Positions 19,116 to 62,774 of a stretch of DNA of 64,000 bases are shown piece by piece. Each line of letters begins with the position of its first letter. Position 1 is the first letter of the stretch. Source of the stretch: Betaproteobacteria bacterium (GTDB lineage: Bacteria; Pseudomonadota; Gammaproteobacteria; Burkholderiales; SG8-41); assembly GCA_023266235.1 (NCBI GenBank), contig JAHFRL010000010.1, positions 5,555 to 69,554 on the forward strand, in the 5' to 3' direction. Made by a program: the position numbers and the translations under genes. A model generated the notes under the pieces. The model searched no databases, was not told the origin of the DNA, and saw nothing but the letters and a program-made list of their open reading frames with translations.

Positions 19116-19756
19116 CACCTGATGCGGTCGCGAGTTACCTCAAGCAGCACCCCGAATTTTTCGAAGAGCACGCCGATTTCCTGGCGACGATCTTCATCCC
19201 GCACCCGCACGGCGGGCGTGCGATTTCGATCAGCGAGCGCCAGATACTCACGCTGCGCGAGAAGGGCAAGCAGCTCGAAGGCAAGCTGCGCGAGCTGATC
19301 GAATTCGGCGAGGATAACGACGCGATCGGCGAGAAGCTGCACCGGCTCACGCTGGCGCTGGTTGCGGCGCGCGACGCTGAGGCCGTGATCGAGGCGTTGT
19401 ACTTCAACCTGCGCGAGGATTTCGCGGTGCCGCATACCGTGTTGCGGCTGTGGAAGGAGGGCGCGCATCCGCGGCTGGCCGAGTTCGACGCCGTCAGCAC
19501 CGAGGCGCGCGAGTTTGCCGAGAGCCTGGCGAATCCCTATTGCAGCGCGCACGCGATGGTCGATACCGGAGCATGGTTCGGTGAGAACGCCGCGCACTTG
19601 CGCTCGTTTGCTTATGTCGCGCTGAAGAGCGGCCAGACTTTCGGGCTGCTCGCCATGGCGAGCGAAGACGCACAGCGCTTCTACCCCGAGATGGGCACGC
19701 TCTATCTGAAACGCCTGGGCGAGCTTACCGCGGCGGCGTTGTTGAGGTACTTGTGA
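19112..19756 (+). CDS. DUF484 family protein
   Basis: [20 protein letters not shown]-terminus, in the classical dapF-DUF484-xerC context. ATGA overlap with dapF. Confidence 0.8.
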
Positions 19757-19781
19757 AGGGTGAAGGGTGAAGGGTGAATGG
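19753..19781 (+). repeat. Tandem heptamer repeat, about 3.5 x GTGAAGG, starting on the DUF484 TGA stop and covering the candidate xerC GTG start
   Basis: gtgaagggtgaagggtgaagggtgaatgg. Confidence 0.9.
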
Positions 19782-20699
19782 ACTCGGGCAAAAATACCCG
19801 CTGTAAAGAATGCGGGCGCAGCGAAGCTGCTCGAGAACTACCTCGGCCATCTCGCCAACGAGCGGCGCTTAAGCCGGCACACCGTCCTCAACTACCAGCG
19901 CGATATCGCGGCGCTGCTCGAGCTTGCCGCCGACACGCCGCTTGCCAAGCTGCAGCTCCACAATATACGGCGCTTCGTCGCGCAATTGCACGCACGCGGG
20001 CTCGACGGCAGGAGCCTCGCGCGCATGCTGTCGGCGTGGCGCGGATTTTACCGCTACCTCGCACGCGATCACGGCTACACCAGCAACCCCTGCATCGGGC
20101 TGCGCGCGCCGAAATCCAAGAAGACCCTGCCGCAGGCACTGTCGCCCGATGAGGCCGGACGGCTGATGGACCTCCCGGACGGCGCTGCGCTCGCGACCCG
20201 CGACAAGGCGATCTTCGAGCTGTTCTACTCTTCGGGATTGCGTCTGTCGGAGCTCACAAGTCTCGCGCCGACCGACATCAATTTCAGCGATGCGACGGTG
20301 CGCGTCACGGGCAAGGGGGCCAAGACGCGCGTGGTGCCGGTCGGCAGTCACGCGCTCAACGCGGTGCAGGACTGGCTCAGGCAGCGCGCGCTCTTGATCA
20401 AAGCCGGCGGCGATGCGCTGTTCGTCAACCGCAACGGCACGCGGCTGACGCCGCGCGCGATCCAGTACCGTTTCAAGCAATGGGCGTTGAAGCTGGGGCT
20501 CGATAGCGACGTGCATCCGCACATGCTGCGCCATTCGTTCGCGTCGCACGTGCTGCAATCGAGCGGCGACCTGCGCGCGGTGCAGGAGATGCTCGGCCAT
20601 GCGAGCATTTCGACGACGCAGGTTTATACCCATCTCGATTTTCAGTACCTCGCGAAGGTTTACGACGCCGCGCATCCGCGCGCGAGGAAAAAAAGCTGA
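19767..20699 (+). CDS. xerC: Tyrosine recombinase XerC (chromosome dimer resolution)
   Basis: LSRHTVLNYQRDI, GLRLSEL, HMLRHSFASHVLQSSGDLRAVQEMLGHASISTTQVYTH (R..HxxR..Y). Context is dapF-DUF484. The start is uncertain: GTG 19767 lies inside the repeat. Confidence 0.8.
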   Translation: MKGEWTRAKIPAVKNAGAAKLLENYLGHLANERRLSRHTVLNYQRDIAALLELAADTPLAKLQLHNIRRFVAQLHARGLDGRSLARMLSAWRGFYRYLARDHGYTSNPCIGLRAPKSKKTLPQALSPDEAGRLMDLPDGAALATRDKAIFELFYSSGLRLSELTSLAPTDINFSDATVRVTGKGAKTRVVPVGSHALNAVQDWLRQRALLIKAGGDALFVNRNGTRLTPRAIQYRFKQWALKLGLDSDVHPHMLRHSFASHVLQSSGDLRAVQEMLGHASISTTQVYTHLDFQYLAKVYDAAHPRARKKS

Positions 20700-20807: not shown

Positions 20808-20883
20808 GCTTTTCTTGGCGTCTTGGCGGTTCAATTTGATCTTATCGGCGTTAATCGGCGCTCATCGGCGGCTCAATGTGCTA

Positions 20884-20912
20884 GTGAAGGGTGAAGAGTG
20901 AAGGGTGAAGGG
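20884..20912 (+). repeat. Tandem heptamer repeat, 4 x GTGAAGG/GTGAAGA, overlapping the rlmI GTG start
   Basis: gtgaagggtgaagagtgaagggtgaaggg. Confidence 0.9.
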
Positions 20913-22103
20913 AAGGCGCTGTCGCGTCTTATATTGAAGCCCGGCCGCGAGAAATCGCTCAAGCGCCGCCATCCGTGGGTGTTTTCGGGCGCGGTCGCGA
21001 AATTCAGCGGCACGCCGGACGCGGGCGACACCATCGAGGTACACAGCGCCGACGGGGAATTTCTGGCGGTGGCCGCGTGCAACCCGCAATCGCAAATCGT
21101 CGCGCGCGTGTGGGCTTGGGAGAAGCGGGAAATCGACGCCGCGTTTTTCCGGGACCGCATCGGACGCGCGGTCGCGCTGCGCAGCCAGCTGCTTCCGGAG
21201 TGTGAATCGGTGCGTCTGGTGCACGCGGAGTCGGACGGGCTGCCGGGCGTGGTGATCGACCGTTACGGCGACATCGTCGTGGTGCAATTGTCGAGCGCGG
21301 GTGCGATGCGCTGGCGTGACGCGGTCGCGGATGCCGTCGAAGCGGTGGTCAAGCCGACAACTGTTTTCGAGCGTTCAGATGCCGACGTGCTTGCGCTCGA
21401 AGGCCAGCAGCCGCGCGTGGGCTTGCTGCGCGGCGCTGCGCCGCCGGCGCAGGTAGTGGTAAACGAAGCGGGTGCAATGTTCGAAGTCGACGTGCCGCAT
21501 GGCCATAAGACGGGTTTTTATCTCGACCAGCGCGATAACCGGCTGCGGCTGCGTGAGCTTGCCGCCAAGCGCGAAATGCTCGACTGTTTTGCCTACACCG
21601 GCGGTTTCACCGTGAACGCGCTCATCGGCGGCGCCGCGACCGTGACCGCGCTCGACAGCTCGGGTTCGGCGCTCGAATTGCTTGCGCGCAACGTCGCGCT
21701 CAATCGGCTGCCGCAGGCCGAATGCATCGAAGGCGACGTGTTCCAGTTATTGCGCAAGATGCGAGACCAGGCGCGCAGTTTCGATCTGATCGTGCTCGAC
21801 CCGCCGAAATTCGCGCCGACCGCGGCGCACGCCGAGAAAGCGTCGCGCGCCTACAAGGACATCAACCTGCTCGCGTTCAAACTGCTGCGGCCGGGCGGGC
21901 TGCTGTTGACGTTCTCATGCTCGGGCGGCGTGTCGCGCGAGCTGTTCCAGAAAATCGTCGCCGGGGCCGCGCTCGACGCCGGCGTCGAGGCGCAGATCGT
22001 GGAGCAGTTGAGCGCCGGCGCCGACCATCCGGTCGCGCTCAATTTCCCCGAGGGCGAGTATCTGAAGGGGCTGATTTGCCGGGTGGCCGGTGCGTTGGGG
22101 TGA
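20898..22103 (+). CDS. rlmI: 23S rRNA (cytosine1962-C5)-methyltransferase RlmI-like, PUA + class I SAM methyltransferase
   Basis: RLILKPGREKSLKRRHPWVFSGAV (matches the E. coli RlmI N-terminus as I recall it), DCFAYTGGF, VLDPPKF. Confidence 0.75.
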   Translation: MKGEGKALSRLILKPGREKSLKRRHPWVFSGAVAKFSGTPDAGDTIEVHSADGEFLAVAACNPQSQIVARVWAWEKREIDAAFFRDRIGRAVALRSQLLPECESVRLVHAESDGLPGVVIDRYGDIVVVQLSSAGAMRWRDAVADAVEAVVKPTTVFERSDADVLALEGQQPRVGLLRGAAPPAQVVVNEAGAMFEVDVPHGHKTGFYLDQRDNRLRLRELAAKREMLDCFAYTGGFTVNALIGGAATVTALDSSGSALELLARNVALNRLPQAECIEGDVFQLLRKMRDQARSFDLIVLDPPKFAPTAAHAEKASRAYKDINLLAFKLLRPGGLLLTFSCSGGVSRELFQKIVAGAALDAGVEAQIVEQLSAGADHPVALNFPEGEYLKGLICRVAGALG

Positions 22104-27196: not shown

Positions 27197-27733
27197 ATGG
27201 AGCAATTTCACGGCACGACCATTATTTCGGCGCGGCGCGGCAAGCGCGTTGCGCTCGGCGGCGACGGCCAGGTCACGCTCGGCAACGTCGTGCTCAAAGC
27301 GAGCGCGCGCAAGGTGCGGCGTTTGTACGAGGACAAGATACTCGCCGGCTTTGCCGGCGGCACGGCTGACGCGTTCACGCTGTTCGAGCGCTTCGAGGCC
27401 AAGCTCGAGAAGCACCAGGGCAACCTGCTGCGCTCGGCGGTCGAGCTCGCCAAGGATTGGCGCACCGACCGCATCCTGCGCCGGCTCGAGGCGATGCTGG
27501 TGGTGTGCGACAGCGAGAGCTCGCTGATCATCTCCGGCAACGGCGACGTGCTCGAGCCCGAGCAGGGGCTGGTCGCGATCGGCAGCGGCGGGCCGTATGC
27601 GCAGGCCGCGGCGCGCGCGCTGCTCGAAAATACCGTCATGCCGCCCGAGGAAATCGTGAAGAAGGCGCTGGCCATCGCCGGCGACCTGTGCATCTATACC
27701 AATCAGCAGCATGTGATTGAAATACTTGAGTGA
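27197..27733 (+). CDS. hslV: ATP-dependent protease subunit HslV
   Basis: [37 protein letters not shown]. Confidence 0.95.
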
Positions 27734-27815
27734 AGGGTGAATGCGTGAAGGGTGAGGGGCGCGGTAGATCAGCGTCCCGGATTTTTCCCTTCACCCTTGA
27801 CCCTTCCCCCTTCAC
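27730..27815 (+). repeat. Inverted heptamer-repeat hairpin inside the hslV-hslU operon, starting on the hslV TGA
   Basis: The left arm is gtgaagggtgaatgcgtgaagggtgagggg. The right arm is cccttcacccttgacccttcccccttcac. Confidence 0.9.
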
Positions 27816-27826
27816 GAGTTGACGCC

Positions 27827-29152
27827 ATGTCTCAAATGACCCCCCAGGAAATCGTCCACGAACTCGATAAACATATCATCGGGCAGGACGCCGCCAAGCG
27901 CGCGGTTGCGATCGCATTACGCAATCGCTGGCGCCGCCAGCAGGTGGCGGAGCCGCTGCGCCAGGAGATCACGCCCAAGAATATCCTGATGATCGGACCG
28001 ACCGGCGTCGGCAAGACCGAAATCGCGCGGCGGCTGGCGCGGCTCGCTGACGCGCCGTTCATCAAGGTCGAAGCGACCAAGTTCACCGAAATCGGCTACG
28101 TCGGGCGCGACGTCGACACCATCGTCCGCGATCTGGTCGAGACCGCGATCAAGCAGACGCGCGAGCAGGCGACACGCAAGGTGCGGCACCAGGCCGCGGA
28201 CCAGGCCGAGGAGCGCGTCCTCGATGTCCTGCTGCCGCCCGCGCGCGATGATGTTGCAGCGGTCGGCGAAAGCGCAAACGCGACGCGGCAAAAATTCCGC
28301 AAGAAGCTGCGCGAAGGCGAACTCGACGACAAGGAAATCGAGATCGACGTTGCCTCGCCCCAGGCGCACATGGAGATTTTCGCCCCGCCCGGCATGGAGG
28401 ACCTGACCTCCCAGATCCAGGGCATGTTTCAGAACCTGGGCGGCGCGCGGCGCAAAACGCGCAAATTGAAGATTCGCGAGGCGATGAAACTGCTGGCCGA
28501 GGAAGAGGCGGCGAAGCTCGTCAACGATGACGACCTTAAATTACGCGCGGTCGCCAACGTGGAGCAGAACGGCATCGTGTTCCTGGACGAGATCGACAAG
28601 ATCACCAGCCGCTCCGAGGTTTCAGGCGCCGACGTTTCGCGCCAGGGCGTGCAGCGCGACCTGCTGCCGCTGGTCGAAGGCACGACGGTGTCGACCAAGT
28701 ACGGCATGATCAAGACCGACCACATCCTGTTCATCGCGAGCGGCGCATTCCATCTCGCCAAGCCCTCCGACCTGATCCCCGAGCTGCAGGGGCGTTTCCC
28801 CATCCGCGTCGAACTGGCGAGCCTCTCCGTCGCCGATTTCGAGCAGATACTCACTAACACCGATGCGTGCCTCACGCGCCAGTATGAAGCGCTGCTCGCG
28901 ACCGAGGGCGTGACCGTCAATTTTCAAACGTCGGCGATCAAGCGCCTCGCCGAAATCGCATGGCAGGTCAACGAGAAGACCGAGAACATCGGCGCGCGGC
29001 GCCTGTACACCGTGATGGAAAAGCTACTCGAGGAAATTTCCTTCAACGCGACCAAGCGCTCGGGCGAGAAGATCGCCGTCGACGCCGCGTACGTCGACGC
29101 CAGGCTGAAAGGGCTGGCGCAGAGCGAGGATTTGGCCCGTTACGTGCTGTAA
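27827..29152 (+). CDS. hslU: ATP-dependent protease ATPase subunit HslU
   Basis: [60 protein letters not shown]. Start moved to ATG 27827. Confidence 0.95.
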
Positions 29153-29154
29153 CG

Positions 29155-29223
29155 GAAATGATGAGTGATGAGTGACGGCGCAGCAGTCTGCGCTGACTTT
29201 TCACCGCTCACTGCTCACCGCAC
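29155..29223. repeat. Inverted heptamer-type hairpin after hslU (GATGAGT units)
   Basis: The left arm is gaaatgatgagtgatgagtgacgg. The inner small hairpin is gcgcagcagtctgcgc. The right arm is ttttcaccgctcactgctcaccgcac. Confidence 0.8.
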
Positions 29224-29277
29224 TAAGACCGTCGGCTTGATCCCCAGCGCCTGACCGATGCGCTCGGCGGCCTGCCG
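29215..29277 (-). pseudogene. Duplicated 3' end of rlpA (last ~20 codons plus stop), orphan fragment
   Basis: 59/63 nt are identical to 30828-30890. On the minus strand it translates as ..RQAAERIGQALGIKPTVLVR*, versus ..RQIAERIGQALGIKPMVLVR* in rlpA. Confidence 0.85.
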
Positions 29278-29280
29278 CGC

Positions 29281-30165
29281 TTATGCGGCGGTCAACCCGT
29301 AGTCGCTCGGGGATTCCTCGATGCAGTAGCCATTACGGCCGCGTGCCTTGACCTCGTACATCGCGCGGTCGGCGCGCTCCAACAGCAAGGCTGCATCATG
29401 ACCGTCTCGCGGGTAGAAGCTCGCGCCCACGCTCAGCGTAATCCGGAACTCGTGGCCGCGCACTACGTAAAGCTCGCCGCACGTCGTAAGCAGTTTGGAC
29501 GTAATGCATGCGGCCGACCGCTGATCTGTGACGCCATCGAGAATGGCGACGAATTCATCGCCGCCCCAACGCGCCACGGTGTCGCTTGCCCGTACCGATT
29601 GCACGAGGCGCGCAGCAATTTCGCGCAACAGTTCATCACCGGTCTCGTGCCCGAAGGTGTCGTTAATCTGCTTGAAGTGATCGATGTCGATGTAGAGCAA
29701 AGCAAACGCACTGCGGTTGCGCTGCCCGACCGCCAGGGCACGTGCCAGCCGGTCGTCGAACAGGTTGCGGTTCGGCAGCCCGGTGAGGTTGTCGTGAAAC
29801 GCCAGCCTGGAGAGCCTCTCCAGCTGCCGGTCGTCGCCAAGGTGTTGAAAAAAGTGGACGTAATGGGTTACCACACCGGCGTCGTCGCATAACGGATAGA
29901 CCGCGTACAAGACATCGAGCATGTTTCCGCTGCTGCTGTGAATGCGCAGTTCGCGGTACTTGGCCTCGCCAGCGTCCTGCCCGCCCGGTCCTACCCGGAA
30001 CTCCAGGAGGTTGAAGGGCAGTTCGACCGGTTCACCGCTGCGCACCCCCAGCATCCTGCATAGATACGCGTTGGCGTGTTCGAGCGTGCCGTCCAGTCGC
30101 GCGATCGCCATCCCTACCGCGAAACGTTCGATGTTTCTGAGAAGGTCTTGTTTATGCCAAGCCAT
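29281..30165 (-). CDS. Diguanylate cyclase (GGDEF) with N-terminal PAS-like sensor region
   Basis: DNLTGLPNRNLFDDRL, LLYIDIDHFKQINDTFGHETGDELL, RWGGDEFVAIL (GGDEF), RADRAMYEVKARGRN. Confidence 0.9.
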   Translation of the reverse strand: MAWHKQDLLRNIERFAVGMAIARLDGTLEHANAYLCRMLGVRSGEPVELPFNLLEFRVGPGGQDAGEAKYRELRIHSSSGNMLDVLYAVYPLCDDAGVVTHYVHFFQHLGDDRQLERLSRLAFHDNLTGLPNRNLFDDRLARALAVGQRNRSAFALLYIDIDHFKQINDTFGHETGDELLREIAARLVQSVRASDTVARWGGDEFVAILDGVTDQRSAACITSKLLTTCGELYVVRGHEFRITLSVGASFYPRDGHDAALLLERADRAMYEVKARGRNGYCIEESPSDYGLTAA

Positions 30166-30229
30166 GTCGGCCGATTATGACGGTGGAGTCGCAAACGCCT
30201 AGCGCGCAACGATTTAATTTTGCACATAT

Positions 30230-30267
30230 GTTACTATAGGTTACTATAAAACGCAACCGTTAGTAAC
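30230..30267. promoter_or_regulatory. Operator-like repeats in the divergent GGDEF / HTH promoter region
   Basis: Direct repeat gttactatag gttactataa, followed by the palindrome gttagtaac. The stretch is AT-rich, with TTGCAC just upstream. Confidence 0.4.
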
Positions 30268-30302
30268 TCTCGCCGTCATGCTTGGTGGTAGTGTGGTCCA
30301 GC

Positions 30303-30716
30303 ATGACCCTCGCTGATGAGAAACAGGGCTTCAGTAAGCGACTCAAGGAAACGATACGCAGGGCGCGCATCGACATCAGCAGCCCGACGCTTATTGCCCG
30401 CGAATTCAACCTGCGGTATCACGGCGACCCAGTTTCCACACAGGCGGTACGAAAATGGCTGTCGGGGAAAGCACTACCCTCGCAGGACAAAATCCGCGCT
30501 TTGGGATTGTGGCTCGACGTCCCGGCGCACTGGTTGCGTTTCGGCGAGGCCGACAGGAAGGAGGAACGCCAGCCGTTGACTGTGCGGCAGGAGGCGGGCG
30601 CCTATCGGCTTGCCCACGGCTGGCCGTCAAGGAAGTTCGAGCTGCTGAATGATACCCATAAGCGTATGGTGGTGGAGATGGTTCACGCGCTGTTGCGGCT
30701 CGAGGGCAAGCAGTAG
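30303..30716 (+). CDS. XRE/Cro-type helix-turn-helix transcriptional regulator
   Basis: FSKRLKETIRRARIDISSPTLIAREFNLRYHGDPVSTQAVRKWLSGKALPSQDKIRALGLWLDV. Start moved to ATG 30303. Confidence 0.75.
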   Translation: MTLADEKQGFSKRLKETIRRARIDISSPTLIAREFNLRYHGDPVSTQAVRKWLSGKALPSQDKIRALGLWLDVPAHWLRFGEADRKEERQPLTVRQEAGAYRLAHGWPSRKFELLNDTHKRMVVEMVHALLRLEGKQ

Positions 30717-30773
30717 CGCGAGACAGTCGTACCGCCGGTCGCAAAGGGGCAGGGATCTCGCGCATTGCGTGTT

Positions 30774-30836
30774 GTAAGTGGTAAGCGTTCAGCGATCGGT
30801 GAGACTCGGCCGCTTACCGTTCATCGTTCACCGCAC
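30774..30836. repeat. Inverted heptamer-type hairpin (GTAAGYG units) abutting the rlpA stop
   Basis: The left arm is gtaagtggtaagcg. The right arm is cgcttaccgttcatcgttcaccgcac. Confidence 0.75.
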
Positions 30837-31901
30837 TAAAACCATCGGCTTGATCCCCAGCGCCTGACCGATGCGCTCGGCGATCTGCCGAGCTTCGGTC
30901 TGGTTGGTGTATGGCCCGGCGTGTACGCGGTGGAGCCCGTCCCGCGGAAACACGTGCAGACGGTCGGCCAGCCAGTCGATCTGCAGCCTGAGCCTCGCGA
31001 GGTAGTTTTCCGCATTTTCCCTTGATCCGAATGCACCAAGCTGCAGGTAAACGCCGTTTGCTTCCCTGGTCATGGGGATCTCAGGCGCGGCGGTTACCGC
31101 TGTCGGTTGCGTCTCGGGCGCCGGGGGTGGCGCAGCAATTGGCTCGGGTGCGCCCGCCGCCGTGGGTGTACGGTCACGCAGGGGGGCTGACGCCGGCTGT
31201 GCTGGAGCGGACGCCAGGGCCGCTGGCGTGATGTCGCCCGGCAGGATACTTTCCACTTCCACCATCGCGCTGCCGCCGCCCAGCACGCCGAGCTTGTAAG
31301 CCGCGGTGTACGACAAATCGATCAGCCGGTCGGAGCGGAATGGCCCGCGATCGTTGACGCGCACCACCACCGACTTGTTGTTCTGTAAATTGGTGACGCG
31401 CACGTAGCTCGGGATCGGCAATACCGTGTGCGCCGCCGTCATGCCGTACATGTCGTAAATCTCGCCTGACGAAGTCTGCTGGCCGTGATAGCGCCGGCCG
31501 TACCAGCTCGCGATGCCGCGCGCCTTGTACGGCTGCAACGCAGTCATCGGCGCGTAGCTTTGCCCCATCACGGTGTATGGCCGTTGCGTGCCGCGGTGCA
31601 GCGGCTCGCGTTTCGGCGCCGCATCGGGAACCTGGTCGAGATTCGACGGTGGATTGTCGCCCGGTCCGTCATCGCGGTAGTACCCGCCACCACGCGGCGT
31701 CGCGGGTTTGGAAGGGGCGGATACGCCATCCGGCACGCGGGTCACCGGCGGTTCGCGCGTGGCGATGCTGCCGCAGCCGGCGAGCGTGATCGCGGCGCAT
31801 GCCGCAATCACGCGAAGAGGCGAGAGGCGAGAAGCGAGAAGCGGGATAGAGCCAAGCGGTTCATCTCCTCTCTCCTCTCTCCCCTCGCCTTTCTCCGTCA
31901 C
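30828..31901 (-). CDS. rlpA: Septal ring lytic transglycosylase RlpA family lipoprotein with C-terminal SPOR domain
   Basis: Lipobox ITLAGC. DPBB region GIASWYGRRYHGQQTSSGEIYDMYGMTAAH...VRVTNLQNNKSVVVRVNDRGPF. SPOR-like tail YLQLGAFGSRENAENY. The start is uncertain: GTG 31901 would translate through a repeat hairpin. Confidence 0.8.
   Translation of the reverse strand: MTEKGEGREERGDEPLGSIPLLASRLSPLRVIAACAAITLAGCGSIATREPPVTRVPDGVSAPSKPATPRGGGYYRDDGPGDNPPSNLDQVPDAAPKREPLHRGTQRPYTVMGQSYAPMTALQPYKARGIASWYGRRYHGQQTSSGEIYDMYGMTAAHTVLPIPSYVRVTNLQNNKSVVVRVNDRGPFRSDRLIDLSYTAAYKLGVLGGGSAMVEVESILPGDITPAALASAPAQPASAPLRDRTPTAAGAPEPIAAPPPAPETQPTAVTAAPEIPMTREANGVYLQLGAFGSRENAENYLARLRLQIDWLADRLHVFPRDGLHRVHAGPYTNQTEARQIAERIGQALGIKPMVLVR
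31814..31896 (-). repeat. Inverted purine/pyrimidine heptamer-type hairpin between the rodA stop and the rlpA lipobox
   Basis: The plus-strand arms are gaagaggcgagaggcgagaagcgagaagcggg and ctcctctctcctctctcccctcgcctttctcc, with a 19-nt spacer. Confidence 0.85.
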
Positions 31902-37525: not shown

Positions 37526-37813
37526 ATGACGCTGACTCTGGACGATGTGAAACGCATCGCGCACCTTGCCCGCATCGAGATCGAGCCGCACGAGGCGGAG
37601 CAGGTGCTGGCACAGTTGACCGGGATCTTCCGGCTGATCGAGGAGATGCAGGCGGTCGGCACCGACGGCGTCGAGCCAATGGCGCATGCGCAGGACGTGA
37701 TGCTGCGACTGCGCGATGATGCGGTGACCGCAGCGGATCAGCGCGCGCTGTTCCAGTCGATTGCACCCCAGGTCGAATCCGGCCTTTACCTGGTGCCCAA
37801 GGTTATTGAGTGA
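37526..37813 (+). CDS. gatC: Asp/Glu-tRNA(Asn/Gln) amidotransferase subunit C
   Basis: [17 protein letters not shown]...LYLVPKVIE, upstream of gatA and gatB. Confidence 0.9.
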
Positions 37814-37844
37814 GGGGTGAAGGGTGAAGAGTGAAGGGTTGGGG
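37810..37844 (+). repeat. Tandem heptamer repeat (GTGAGGG/GTGAAGG/GTGAAGA) starting on the gatC TGA
   Basis: gtgaggggtgaagggtgaagagtgaagggttgggg. There is only a weak complementary arm (cccctttgaccc...) before gatA. Confidence 0.85.
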
Positions 37845-43105: not shown

Positions 43106-43234
43106 GGTGAATAGTGAATGGTGAATAGTGAACGGTAAAACGCAGTCCGTACCGCCTTTCCTCCGGGAGAGAGTGGGACCGGATTGCCCGATTCTTCATT
43201 TCCCATTTCCCATTTCCCATTTCCCATTTACTCG
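43106..43234 (+). repeat. Inverted heptamer-repeat element (GGTGAAT/AGTGAAT units versus 5 x CATTTCC) after xthA
   Basis: The left arm is ggtgaatagtgaatggtgaatagtgaacggtaaaacg. The right arm is ttcatttcccatttcccatttcccatttcccatttactcg. The spacer is about 52 nt. Confidence 0.9.
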
Positions 43235-60776: not shown

Positions 60777-61804
60777 ACGAACTATCGGGCTGGGCCGAGG
60801 AAAAGCGCGCCGCGTATCTGTATCGCGTGGTCGCCGAGTGCGAAGCCGGCTCGCCGCGCGAGAAGCTGTTCCTCGGGCTCGCCGCGGAAGCGGAAAGCCA
60901 GGCTGCAATCTGGGAAAAAAAAGCGCGCGCCGCGGGCGCGGCCGTGCCGCAGGGCTATGTTCCCGATGTGCGTGCGCGCGTCGTCGCAGGGCTGGTGCGG
61001 CGCCACGGGCCGCGGCGCCTGCGCGGCATGCTGGCAGCGATGAAAGTGCGCGGCATGTCGGTGTACGCGAGCGGCGGCTCGGGGCGGGTGTTCCCGCATC
61101 ATCTCGACGACGTCGGCCACCACCGCGGATTGTCCGGCGGCGGCAATCTGCGCGCGGCGGTTTTCGGCGTGAACGATGGACTGATCTCGAACGCGAGCCT
61201 GATCATGGGCGTCGCCGGCGCGAGCGCCGACAGCGCAATGATCGTGCTGACCGGCGTCGCGGGGCTGGTGGCCGGCGCGTTCTCGATGGCGGCCGGCGAA
61301 TACGTGTCGGTGCGTTCGCAGCGCGAAATGTACGAATACCAGATCGGACTCGAGCGCGATGAGCTTGCCGAATATCCCGAAGAAGAAGCGCGCGAGCTCA
61401 CGCTGATCTACGAGGCGCGCGGCATCGCGCCTGACGAAGCGCGGCGCCTGGCGCAGACAATCATCACCGATCCCGAGCAGGCGCTCGACACGCTCGCGCG
61501 CGAGGAACTGGGCCTGAATCCCGAGGACCTCGGCTCGCCGTGGGGGGCCGCAACGTTCTCATTCATGTCGTTCGCCGCCGGCAGCGCGATACCGCTGCTG
61601 CCGTTTTTGCTCGGCCTGGGTAGCGCGAGCTTGCCAACAGCGATCGCGCTGACCGCAGCCGCGCTGTTCGCGGTCGGCGCGACGCTATCGCTGTTCACCG
61701 GGCGTAGCGCGCTTGCCAGCGGCCTGCGCATGCTCGCCATCGGCGCCGCCGCGGGCGGCGTGACTTACCTGGTGGGAAAAATGCTGGGTATCAGCCTGGC
61801 GTAA
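60773..61804 (+). CDS. VIT1/CCC1-family iron/manganese transporter with N-terminal ferritin/rubrerythrin-like domain
   Basis: EKRAAYLYRVVAE...LAAEAESQAAIW at the N-terminus. The VIT1 core reads LRAAVFGVNDGLISNASLIMGVAG and EYVSVRSQRE. ATGA overlap with the bcr-like gene. Confidence 0.75.
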   Translation: MNELSGWAEEKRAAYLYRVVAECEAGSPREKLFLGLAAEAESQAAIWEKKARAAGAAVPQGYVPDVRARVVAGLVRRHGPRRLRGMLAAMKVRGMSVYASGGSGRVFPHHLDDVGHHRGLSGGGNLRAAVFGVNDGLISNASLIMGVAGASADSAMIVLTGVAGLVAGAFSMAAGEYVSVRSQREMYEYQIGLERDELAEYPEEEARELTLIYEARGIAPDEARRLAQTIITDPEQALDTLAREELGLNPEDLGSPWGAATFSFMSFAAGSAIPLLPFLLGLGSASLPTAIALTAAALFAVGATLSLFTGRSALASGLRMLAIGAAAGGVTYLVGKMLGISLA

Positions 61805-61810
61805 CAAGCG

Positions 61811-61886
61811 GGATTGAGGATCGAGGATTGAGGATCGAGGAAAAAGCGAAACGCTCTGCTTCTACTCAATCCTCGATCCTCAATCC
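61811..61886 (+). repeat. GGATTGA/GGATCGA inverted heptamer element, copy 1 (upstream of the DUF1847 gene)
   Basis: The left arm is ggattgaggatcgaggattgaggatcgagg, the spacer is aaaaagcgaaacgctctgcttctac, and the right arm is tcaatcctcgatcctcaatcc. Confidence 0.9.
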
Positions 61887-62002
61887 TGCCTTTAACCTCG
61901 CTCCCGGCGGGCAACCCCAGTGGCAGTTTGATCTAGATCAGAGTTCCTCGTCATGGAACGCCTAGACTGATGTGAACCGCTGCATCGATGGGAGGAGTAA
62001 TC

Positions 62003-62707
62003 ATGAAATACGAAGATCCCGCGTGTGCCTATTGTCCGCCGACCGTCCGCGCCTGCCGCCAAGGTGAAGCTGAAGAGCGCGGCCCCGGCTTTTGCCCGAC
62101 CAAGGTCGACCCCGAAACCCAGCACGTCGCGCGCGCGCTGTATGACGACCCGGAAACCCGCAAGGTCTCGCGCGAATCCGCGCTGGTCGAGTCCGAAGGT
62201 TACTGCAAGTGGACGCGGGTCGAAGAGATCGTCCAGTTCGCCAGGCGCATGGGCTACAAAAAAATCGGCATCGCGAACTGCATCAGCTTCGTCGATCACG
62301 CATACGTGCTCTCCGGCATCCTCGAGAGCCACGGCTTCGAGGTCGTGTCGGTCGCCTGCAAGAACGACAGCATCCCGAAGGAAGAGCTGGGGATCGCCGA
62401 TCACGAGAAAATCCGTCCCGGCCAGTTCGAGGCGCTCTGCAATCCGGTGAGCCAGGCCGAGATGCTGAACGCCCACGGCTGCGAGTTCAATGTCGTGCTG
62501 GGGCTATGCATCGGACACGACAGCCTGTTCTTCAAGCATGCCAAGGGACTGACGACCGTGCTGGTCGCCAAAGACCGCGTGCTCGGCCACAACCCGGTGG
62601 CGGCGCTGCAGCTGGCAGACACCTATTACAGCCGCTTGTGGGGACCGCTCAAGCCGGCGAAACCGCGGAAGCTTCCGCCCGCGGGCCGGCGTGACAAGCA
62701 GGATTGA
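62003..62707 (+). CDS. DUF1847 family Cys-rich (metal-binding) protein
   Basis: MKYEDPACAYCPPTVRACRQGE...GFCPTKV, ANCISF, VACKNDS and LGLCIGHDSLF match my recollection of DUF1847. GGGAGGAG lies upstream of ATG 62003. Confidence 0.7.
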   Translation: MKYEDPACAYCPPTVRACRQGEAEERGPGFCPTKVDPETQHVARALYDDPETRKVSRESALVESEGYCKWTRVEEIVQFARRMGYKKIGIANCISFVDHAYVLSGILESHGFEVVSVACKNDSIPKEELGIADHEKIRPGQFEALCNPVSQAEMLNAHGCEFNVVLGLCIGHDSLFFKHAKGLTTVLVAKDRVLGHNPVAALQLADTYYSRLWGPLKPAKPRKLPPAGRRDKQD

Positions 62708-62769
62708 GGATTGAGGATCGAGGATTGAGGAAAAAGCGAAACGCGCTGCTTCTACTCAATCCTCAATCC
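62701..62769 (+). repeat. GGATTGA/GGATCGA inverted heptamer element, copy 2 (covers the DUF1847 TGA)
   Basis: The left arm is ggattgaggattgaggatcgaggattgagg. The spacer aaaaagcgaaacgcgctgcttctac is 24/25 identical to copy 1. The right arm is tcaatcctcaatcc. Confidence 0.9.
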
Positions 62770-62774
62770 TGCTC

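Follow-up and report, generated by a model that had tools for sequence, protein, structure and literature searches.

Integrative elements that target the 3' ends of genes bring a replacement end with them; tRNA and tmRNA islands are examples, as are e14 and phage 21 at icd. A small cargo without recombination genes, direct repeats that include the 3' end of the target and a target gene left intact are features of such elements and of cis-mobilizable elements (CIMEs), as defined in PMC5704250. All three features recur at a locus that we analyzed in a metagenome-derived window (the whole stretch of DNA under study, 64 kb) from an uncultured groundwater betaproteobacterium, where a GGDEF gene and a divergent helix-turn-helix (HTH) gene lie between the convergent housekeeping genes hslU and rlpA, flanked by two copies of the rlpA 3' end. 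The original prediction, made from the letters of the window, had this module inserted into the end of rlpA by a mechanism that regenerated the 3' end, much as such elements do. Unlike them, the locus has no integrase or relic of one and no conserved core; its repeats span the ends of both genes plus the terminator; its orphan ends are target-derived, with the neighbors swapped; and the same cargo occurs at the same site without repeats. Transposons and insertion sequences also leave direct target repeats immediately flanking the insert, but these are of fixed length (2-14 bp), whereas those found here are 80-200 bp and variable, and neither a transposase open reading frame (ORF) nor terminal inverted repeats were found at the window locus. 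In our best reading, the locus is an informative recombination scar around a conserved pair of cyclic di-GMP (c-di-GMP) genes and not a new class of mobile element.

Homology-facilitated illegitimate recombination (HFIR), with 3-10 bp of microhomology, has been documented in bacteria capable of natural transformation (de Vries & Wackernagel 2002; Prudhomme et al. 2002; Meier & Wackernagel 2003, reviewed in PMC6382021). With HFIR our locus would share a homology anchor on one side (hslU or rlpA) and an identity of a few bases on the other, the integration of non-homologous DNA beside the anchor, and joints at GC-rich short identities. It would differ in that the "foreign" piece is the junction of an empty allele, that the outcome is a duplication of gene ends and not a new gene, and that two joints are needed, one per side. 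Microhomology-mediated template switching, by fork stalling and template switching (FoSTeS) or microhomology-mediated break-induced replication (MMBIR), was reportedly set out by Hastings et al. in 2009, and long-distance template switching in E. coli amplification is said to have been described by Slack et al. in 2006. A duplication with a segment at the junction, microhomology at both breakpoints and a structure-forming site as likely trigger are common to these systems and to our locus; here, however, the inserted segment is a complete functional gene pair of 1.4 kb, and a single event is weakly supported, the orphan ends being of unequal age and the pair older than both.

A repeat search of the window returned a gap-free direct repeat of 80 nt (29203-29282 and 30816-30895; 89% identity). 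Within it lies the 63-nt match from which the original prediction started (29215-29277 and 30828-30890), for which our alignment gave the same 59/63 identities. Translation bore out that both copies open with TCA, the TGA stop of rlpA on the minus strand, and encode ...ERIGQALGIKP(M/T)VLVR*, the end of RlpA. A core of 36 nt occurred exactly twice in the window (0 expected), and the local alignment of the two ends scored 115 against a shuffle maximum of 24. These data exclude a chance match and a dispersed repeat; the repeat derives from rlpA, as had been proposed. We designate the functional and orphan gene ends R and R' for rlpA, U and U' for hslU, and Y and Y' for a regulator gene considered below. 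R' (29215-29282, minus strand) holds the last ~22 codons of rlpA and the stop; it adjoins the GGDEF stop codon (29281-29283), where an orphan had indeed been placed, and the repeat homology overlaps that stop.

The duplication of the rlpA end is therefore real, but it is larger than the original prediction had it and forms part of a larger one. The spacer between the HTH stop and the functional rlpA end (30717-30827) repeats, in decayed form, the hslU 3' end and the hairpin that follows it, aligning to 29086-29207 (score 53, shuffle maximum 44, z 6.7, 0/1000). The duplicated unit is thus the entire convergent junction, i.e., the hslU 3' end, the hairpin and the rlpA 3' end, and not the rlpA end alone. 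Copy 1 (29086-29282, 197 nt) consists of U (29086-29152, plus strand, aligning with 30717-~30775), hairpin A (29153-29214) and R'. Copy 2 (30717-30895, 179 nt) consists of U' (30717-30775, plus strand), which has decayed with two 5-nt deletions, hairpin B (30776-30827) and R (30828-30895, minus strand), the latter identified by repeat alignment and translation. Between them, the insert (29281-30716) runs from stop codon to stop codon and holds, as predicted, the GGDEF gene and the divergent HTH gene only. The order is hence U, hairpin A, R', GGDEF and HTH genes, U', hairpin B and R, and the neighbors of the insert are swapped: on its left stands the end of the right-hand gene and on its right the end of the left-hand gene. 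Compared with a plain occupied allele, this swap indicates that the repeats were derived from the target, from an "empty" junction, and that they are neither flanks transferred together with the module nor att copies borne by an element. A comparison of base composition, which the original prediction had suggested as a check, did not set the module apart: its GC content equals that of the flanks, and only the shared promoter region between the two genes, rightly described as AT-rich, deviates (GC 0.51).

To place the locus among relatives, we mapped 80 rlpA loci from species-representative genomes by tblastn; loci from relatives' genomes carry L-numbers below. In at least 14 relatives the site was empty, the rlpA stop being followed by a lineage-specific heptamer hairpin of 10-131 nt and the hslU stop, which substantiates the supposed ancestral order of hslU, hairpin and rlpA. 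The same HTH-GGDEF pair was present at 5 of the 80 loci. Among the rlpA loci compared, two copies of the rlpA end were found in no genome without the module, an outcome that the original prediction had needed. Several of the 80 loci held other cargo of 0.2-5.4 kb, such as TonB-receptor-like and PCuAC-like genes, and no flanking repeats were found around such cargo (L003, L008, L030, L027, L039, L028, L013). The hslU-rlpA site is therefore not a general hotspot for duplication. The usual gene order was rlpA in one direction followed by hslU, hslV and tonB in the other. In L014, L029, L168, L170, L174 and a group of loci termed clade B, hslVU was missing between rlpA and tonB, so that the pair or rlpA adjoined tonB. 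No integrase, relic of one or transposase was detected at any of the ~30 occupied hslU/rlpA or tonB/rlpA loci; that no integrase accompanies the module had been stated for the space between the repeats, and it holds there too. Several records of metagenome-assembled genomes (MAGs) with betaproteobacterial synteny (rodA-rlpA-hslUV; L005, L008, L010, L031, L165, L281 and others) were labeled Streptomyces, Chitinophaga pinensis, Bordetella parapertussis, Xanthobacteraceae or Enterobacteriaceae; these labels are probably taxonomic mislabels.

The pair itself was followed with the HTH protein, whose search gave 113 related loci; the GGDEF protein was discarded as a probe because generic GGDEF domains swamped the results. 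The divergent HTH-GGDEF pair turned out to be a conserved unit in many betaproteobacterial MAGs. It adjoined rlpA where the HTH protein was at least ~76% identical and was otherwise found in other contexts, in some cases in MAGs whose hslU-rlpA site is empty. When 10 loci from different contexts were aligned, an operator-like motif, ATG(C/T)TACTAT.GGTTACTATAA..GCAAC....GTAAC...TGCTTGGTGGTAGTGT, was kept in every context. It lies in the HTH-proximal half of the intergenic region (30230-30300 in the window), and its last block (TGCTTGGTGGTAGTGT) overlaps a possible TTG start at 30282. The pair thus appears to bring its own control region. The native GGDEF stop (...Y-x-x-A*) was also kept in all contexts, whereas the ends of the module were not conserved between different loci, and one set of loci (group E) had near-identical modules with different flanks. 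No close relatives of the HTH protein were found in the plasmid and phage collections searched with it. With its own operator, the pair is a candidate c-di-GMP switch, widespread in groundwater Betaproteobacteria. A 40-nt direct repeat of 85-90% identity was seen in L173/L219, with copies 40 nt before the GGDEF stop and 399 nt past the HTH stop.

In a tree of concatenated proteins, the rlpA-associated modules were monophyletic, and branched in the order L256 (hslU context), L174/L170/L168 (tonB), clade B (tonB), L202/L203 and clade A (hslU, including the window). No orphan ends were detectable in the deep branches (L256, L174, L170, L168). Since the pair is at the locus in these lineages without them, the orphans must be younger than its arrival.

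Further evidence for separate histories of pair and orphans was provided by the state of the orphans. R' was intact in the window and L002/L198 (94%, z 27) and decayed in L215 (86%, z 19), all of which share the same junction; in the L205/L208/L211 type it was hardly recognizable (z 2.6-4.1), in L166 and L163 no trace of it could be detected, and L162/L006 lack it, the GGDEF stop there adjoining the hairpin. Compared with the intact orphan, L205 (z 4.1) and L208/L211 were marginal, and L166, L163 and L162 were not significant; in L001, L026 and L006, alignment to the genome's own rlpA detected none. For U', the distribution was different. In L205, L211, L207 and L166, the sequence from the HTH stop to rlpA gives, when translated, the HslU C-terminus (25 residues), and U' in L205/L211/L166 extends over 89 nt with ~81% identity to the genome's own hslU (z 15-16). 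It has decayed, with common deletions, in the window, L198, L199, L162 and L163, although in the tree the L205 type falls within this group. In the window R' is therefore fresh and U' decayed, and in the L205 type it is the other way round; L162 has U' only; and clade B (L165, L204, L206, L209, L213) has R' only, with a native HTH flank like that of L170. We looked for a foreign donor of U' and found none, U' being 81-86% identical to all hslU ends.

The composition of individual orphans was also informative. The DNA downstream of R' in clade B corresponds to that following the intact rlpA of the module-less L014 (72-84% identity). The ~44 junction-proximal nucleotides of this R' are decayed, its stop-proximal part matches L014 at 23/24 positions, and the functional rlpA ends of clade B belong to a different allele. 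The L014 rlpA end, in turn, resembles the 5' part of the functional copy of clade B joined to the 3' part of its orphan, which is the product expected of a crossover between R and R'. Near the junction, R' of the window and of L002 reads RQAA(E/D), a state common in empty-site genomes, whereas the functional copy in all module bearers reads R.IA. (RQIA in the window and L002); over its other ~48 nt, this R' hardly differs from the functional copy. Judged by these alignments, the orphans look chimeric, with an old junction-proximal and a fresh stop-proximal part, and their patterns indicate repeated homologous exchange or gene conversion via the orphans, with the two sides behaving independently. 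We also considered the window orphan as the original, L007-like rlpA end of the recipient, and rejected this, as it matches L007 at 43/63 positions, versus 58-59/63 for the window/L002 allele.

The window locus was found to be a mosaic. Against a background identity of ~80% to L002/L198, the tract from 29215 to ~31270 differed at only 0-5 positions in each 50 nt, hairpin B and one indel patch being the exceptions. Outside it, the closest match to hslU up to its stop and to rlpA 5' of ~31250 was L007, an empty-site locus; the tract has one of its edges at the boundary of R' and hairpin A. By this profile, the module and the 3' half of rlpA were exchanged between lineages by homologous recombination. 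L001 and L002, two MAGs from Rifle, are mosaics of each other: they agree fully from rodA as far as, and including, the 3' part of the HTH gene and then diverge (GGDEF 73% versus 83% identical to the window), with the breakpoint inside the HTH gene, and the right half of L001 is of the L026/L205 type. This pattern represents either a real recombinant or a strain-chimeric assembly.

The joints between module and orphans lie close to stop codons: 0-4 nt separate R' from the GGDEF stop, and U' follows the HTH stop at a distance of 1 nt. On the GGDEF side, the rlpA sequence GAAGCGCGGCA can be set against module flanks in which the TAA stop is followed by AGC (L162) or AGCGCGGC (L175). On the HTH side, the TAG stop is followed by CGCGA(CAG) in L226 and by CGCGAGACAG in the window, to be compared with hslU GGCGAGAC. 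The identities at the joints, as read from these proxy parental sequences, would be AAGC(GCGGC) and (C)GCGA(GAC), and GGCGT in the second duplication of the window described below. In L175, which has an unrelated context, the 60 nt after the GGDEF stop align weakly to the window orphan (76% over 55 nt, z 3.4, 6/500). This likeness failed correction for multiple testing, is probably due to chance and GC-rich terminator composition, and was used only as a microhomology proxy. The original prediction had called the junctions unusually clean. The joints do lie beside the stops, but this look can be explained by the short identities together with the fact that stop codons abut hairpins in this genome, so that a viable joint can hardly lie elsewhere.

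From these data we infer, tentatively and with somewhat less than even confidence, that the locus is the scar of microhomology-mediated illegitimate joins of occupied alleles with empty ones, after which homologous recombination and gene conversion set in. Older lineages would already have had the pair between the two housekeeping genes, and other strains the empty site. Empty-allele DNA, perhaps acquired by transformation-like uptake, would have recombined with the occupied allele, with one end anchored by homology in hslU or rlpA and the other joined illegitimately at a short identity beside the stop of the GGDEF gene (AAGC...GCGGC) or of the HTH gene (CGCGA / GCGAGAC), one HFIR-type join per side. 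Beside the module, each join would have added the hairpin and the end of the opposite gene (R' next to the GGDEF gene, U' next to the HTH gene), leaving hslU and rlpA with their native 3' ends and terminators. From then on the orphans could have served as short homology arms, refreshed by gene conversion or homologous recombination, that let the module and the rlpA 3' half move between diverged lineages, as may have happened in the window; recombination between R and R' could also delete the module cleanly. Selection would probably act as a filter in this process, joints that truncate hslU or rlpA being lost and those that restore a native end and terminator surviving.

Several observations weigh against this scheme. 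The microhomology lengths (4-9 nt) were deduced from proxies and not from the exact parental flanks. The rlpA codon at which R' starts is the same for clade A as for clade B, which implies either one shared event with later exchanges or reuse of the same microhomology. The missing R' of L162 would need an exact loss of 66 nt or an allele replacement. That both joints lie 0-4 nt from a stop codon is partly a coincidence, mitigated by the stops abutting hairpins. The scheme also presumes that an uncultured betaproteobacterium takes up DNA. Finally, similar flanking duplications were found at a second, unrelated locus and around another gene of the window, and these could hint at a more systematic mechanism.

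At the unrelated locus, in L229 and L231 with a remnant in L233, the module is flanked by a direct repeat of 78-85 nt (86-90% identity) which is the 3' end of a REC+LytTR regulator gene (lytR locus). Most relatives with this locus keep only the orphan Y' after the HTH gene, and their left flanks differ. At L184, an integrase-family ORF (Pfam 1e-19) adjoins the module where Y' begins in the other members; no Y copy was found there. The original suggestion that the pair might occur elsewhere flanked by other gene ends or next to an integrase was thus rewarded on the first count, and on the second by a case that lacks the repeat. A tandem array of att sites at the lytR locus was considered and rejected, as no third Y copy was found. 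The module ends at this locus include ~30 and ~19 nt of the module's own terminators, whereas those of the window are trimmed to the stop codons, which argues that there are no conserved element termini. Downstream at the lytR locus lies a variable stretch of toxin-antitoxin, methylase and defence-like genes.

The second case in the window (61798-62770) is an 83-nt heptamer hairpin present twice (61798-61880 and 62688-62770; 92% identity) on either side of a Cys-rich ORF of 239 aa, which sits between convergent VIT1-like and rhodanese-like genes; the corresponding convergent site is empty in many relatives. In L278 and L281 the ORF occurs without the duplication, and its stop overlaps that of the rhodanese gene. 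It is exactly at this joint that the window has the second hairpin copy, which has GGCGT in common with the VIT1 end. A candidate orphan of the rhodanese end was not significant (z 2.1, 42/1000).

The architecture could also be the product of a single insertion of the stop-trimmed pair into an empty site, in which ~200 bp of target were duplicated in one event, either by FoSTeS/MMBIR-like template switching after fork collapse at the hairpin or by capture of a fragment between sister copies; later differential decay, gene conversion and homologous exchange would then have produced the present diversity. We consider this possible, though rather unlikely. Hairpins are plausible sites of fork stalling or breakage. 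The arrangement A-h-B'-insert-A'-h-B with short identities at both joints is what template switching predicts, clade A has both orphans and both hairpins together, and the duplicated hairpin around the 239-aa ORF and the lytR-type gene-end repeat (78-85 nt) around the same pair show comparable flanks. Yet the deeper lineages hold the pair at the locus without orphans, and R' and U' are very unequally preserved both within one genome and between sister lineages: U' is full-length in the L205 type while its relatives share a deleted form, and clade B combines R' alone with the native L170-like HTH flank. In the second case, moreover, only the duplication of the hairpin is significant, and not the orphan of the opposite gene (z 2.1). 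A single step hence explains the architecture as well as two HFIR joins do, but accounts less well for the difference between R' and U' in age and distribution.

The likeness to integrative elements has fared worse. A circular element with an attP-like U'-hairpin-R' segment might have integrated through a tyrosine recombinase acting in trans, or through single-crossover homologous recombination (Campbell-type), and have left an integrase-less, CIME-like islet bounded by attL and attR; we regard this as unlikely. A small cargo between direct repeats that include a gene 3' end is what CIMEs and elements targeting 3' ends have (PMC5704250). In a circular form, both genes of the pair would converge on one bidirectional hairpin, and the integrase-family ORF of L184 adjoins the module just where Y' starts elsewhere. 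Against this, no integrase or relic was found at ~30 hslU-rlpA loci, L184 itself has no Y copy, no core or termini are common to the loci, other inserts at the site have no repeats, the deep lineages have none either, there are no plasmid or phage relatives, and no excision joint was seen in the data, which are contigs only. The ends of both convergent genes are duplicated, furthermore, and an intergenic crossover needs neither; this, with the orphan-free older lineages, speaks against the insertion into rlpA by an element with a replacement 3' end that was first proposed. A dedicated, undescribed mechanism that inserts cassettes at heptamer-hairpin terminators and duplicates the terminator region, with the HTH-GGDEF pair as one mobile cargo, would account for two hairpin duplications within 64 kb, for the occurrence of the pair in several contexts (near-identical group E modules with different flanks among them) and for hairpins that are ubiquitous and vary by whole units. 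It is nevertheless very improbable: no enzyme that might do this was found, the duplications differ in length (83, ~85 and ~200 nt), the sequence of the hairpin is not kept from one site to the next, the lytR case has no heptamer hairpin, and generic recombination can explain all features. We likewise give little credence to the broader idea that the heptamer hairpins of this lineage are preferred entry points of an undescribed process placing self-contained gene units between convergent genes and duplicating the terminator and adjacent gene ends, by which the HTH-GGDEF pair, without a recombinase of its own, is mobilized recurrently (hslU/rlpA, tonB/rlpA and lytR-type sites). Lastly, a chimeric joining of strains at the repeat during assembly is exceedingly improbable. 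In favor of it, the source is a metagenome, the identical 36-nt core interrupts the Logan unitigs, and L001 and L002 are mutual mosaics; but unitigs from the best run match without error and span both the segment from the hslU end through hairpin A to R' and the breakpoint in rlpA at an equal depth of ~50, which was also that of the module and hairpin B and points to one molecule. The same junction was found in independent samples and assemblies (L002/L198, L199, L215, clade B). Among the unitigs, no excision or skipping joint was seen.

If the two-join scheme is right, the locus shows in good resolution, as an example from nature, how a compact bacterial genome may accept or reshuffle genes between convergent housekeeping genes while damaging neither, and the products that survive have both 3' ends and the shared terminator in duplicate. 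The orphan ends would act as portable homology arms by which a 1.4-kb unit hops between strains ~20% diverged and can be deleted without a scar, so that illegitimate recombination, gene conversion and homologous exchange may be linked in one locus. Empty, occupied without orphans, with one orphan and with two orphans are the states sampled there. As a caution, a repeat of a gene 3' end is not always an att site. We rate the interest of the locus as moderate, for specialists in genome evolution.

The genes of the locus were annotated as follows. hslU (27827-29152, plus strand) encodes the AAA+ ATPase (Pfam AAA_2, 7e-35), converges on rlpA and resembles the empty-site L007 lineage up to its stop. 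The GGDEF gene (29281-30165, minus strand) encodes a PAS-like domain and a GGDEF domain (Pfam PF00990, 4.2e-51, positions 1-160 of 161 covered; TIGR00254, 4.5e-46) with the sequence ...VRASDTVARWGGDEFVAIL...; as the GGDEF motif and the RxxD I-site (RASD) are intact, the product is a predicted diguanylate cyclase. The divergent promoter and operator region (30166-30302) separates it from the HTH gene (30303-30716, plus strand; 137 aa, 98% identical to L002), for which TTG at 30282 is an alternative start. The assignment of the HTH protein to the XRE type, as originally made, appears weaker than the other gene calls: PHROG families of transcriptional repressors matched at 4e-7 to 9e-4, whereas Pfam HTH_3 (E 0.019, 15.5 bits) stayed below its cut-off of 23 and NCBIfam RstR (0.0028) did not reach its own. 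rlpA (30828-31901, minus strand) encodes a lytic transglycosylase with DPBB and SPOR domains (Pfam DPBB_1, 1e-24, and SPOR, 4e-13; NCBIfam TIGR00413, 3e-41); its 3' part up to ~31270 is L002-like and its 5' part L007-like, and the repeat covers the end of the SPOR domain.

The hairpins that had been noted before each copy of the rlpA end both fold, hairpin A (GATGAGT / CGCTCAC units, in the terminator region shared by the convergent genes) at -24.6 kcal/mol (z -2.1) and hairpin B (GGTAAGC / GCTTACC units) at -15 to -17 kcal/mol (z -0.8 to -2.0); the rlpA-proximal arm of B is homologous to that of A. A related strain in run X4 has one added TGATGAG unit in hairpin A (29158) and one added CCGCTTA in hairpin B (30809), and L297 has an array of ~14 GGTAGCT units. 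Going by these sequences, the arms evidently expand and contract by whole heptamer units. No T-tract terminators were found in the spacers examined. GTGAAGG arrays at 19747 and 20878 were considered as a third duplication and rejected, being single-arm heptamer runs. Arrays of 7-nt units (GTGAAGG, GATGAGT, GGTAAGC, GAGAGGC, GGATTGA and others) were present in nearly every intergenic spacer examined (27727-27823, 29153-29214, 30776-30827, 31815-31900, 19747-19782, 20878-20913, 37804-37839 and 43108-43143). They usually consisted of two complementary arms forming a hairpin directly 3' of stop codons, and the sequence of the unit varied by site and by lineage.

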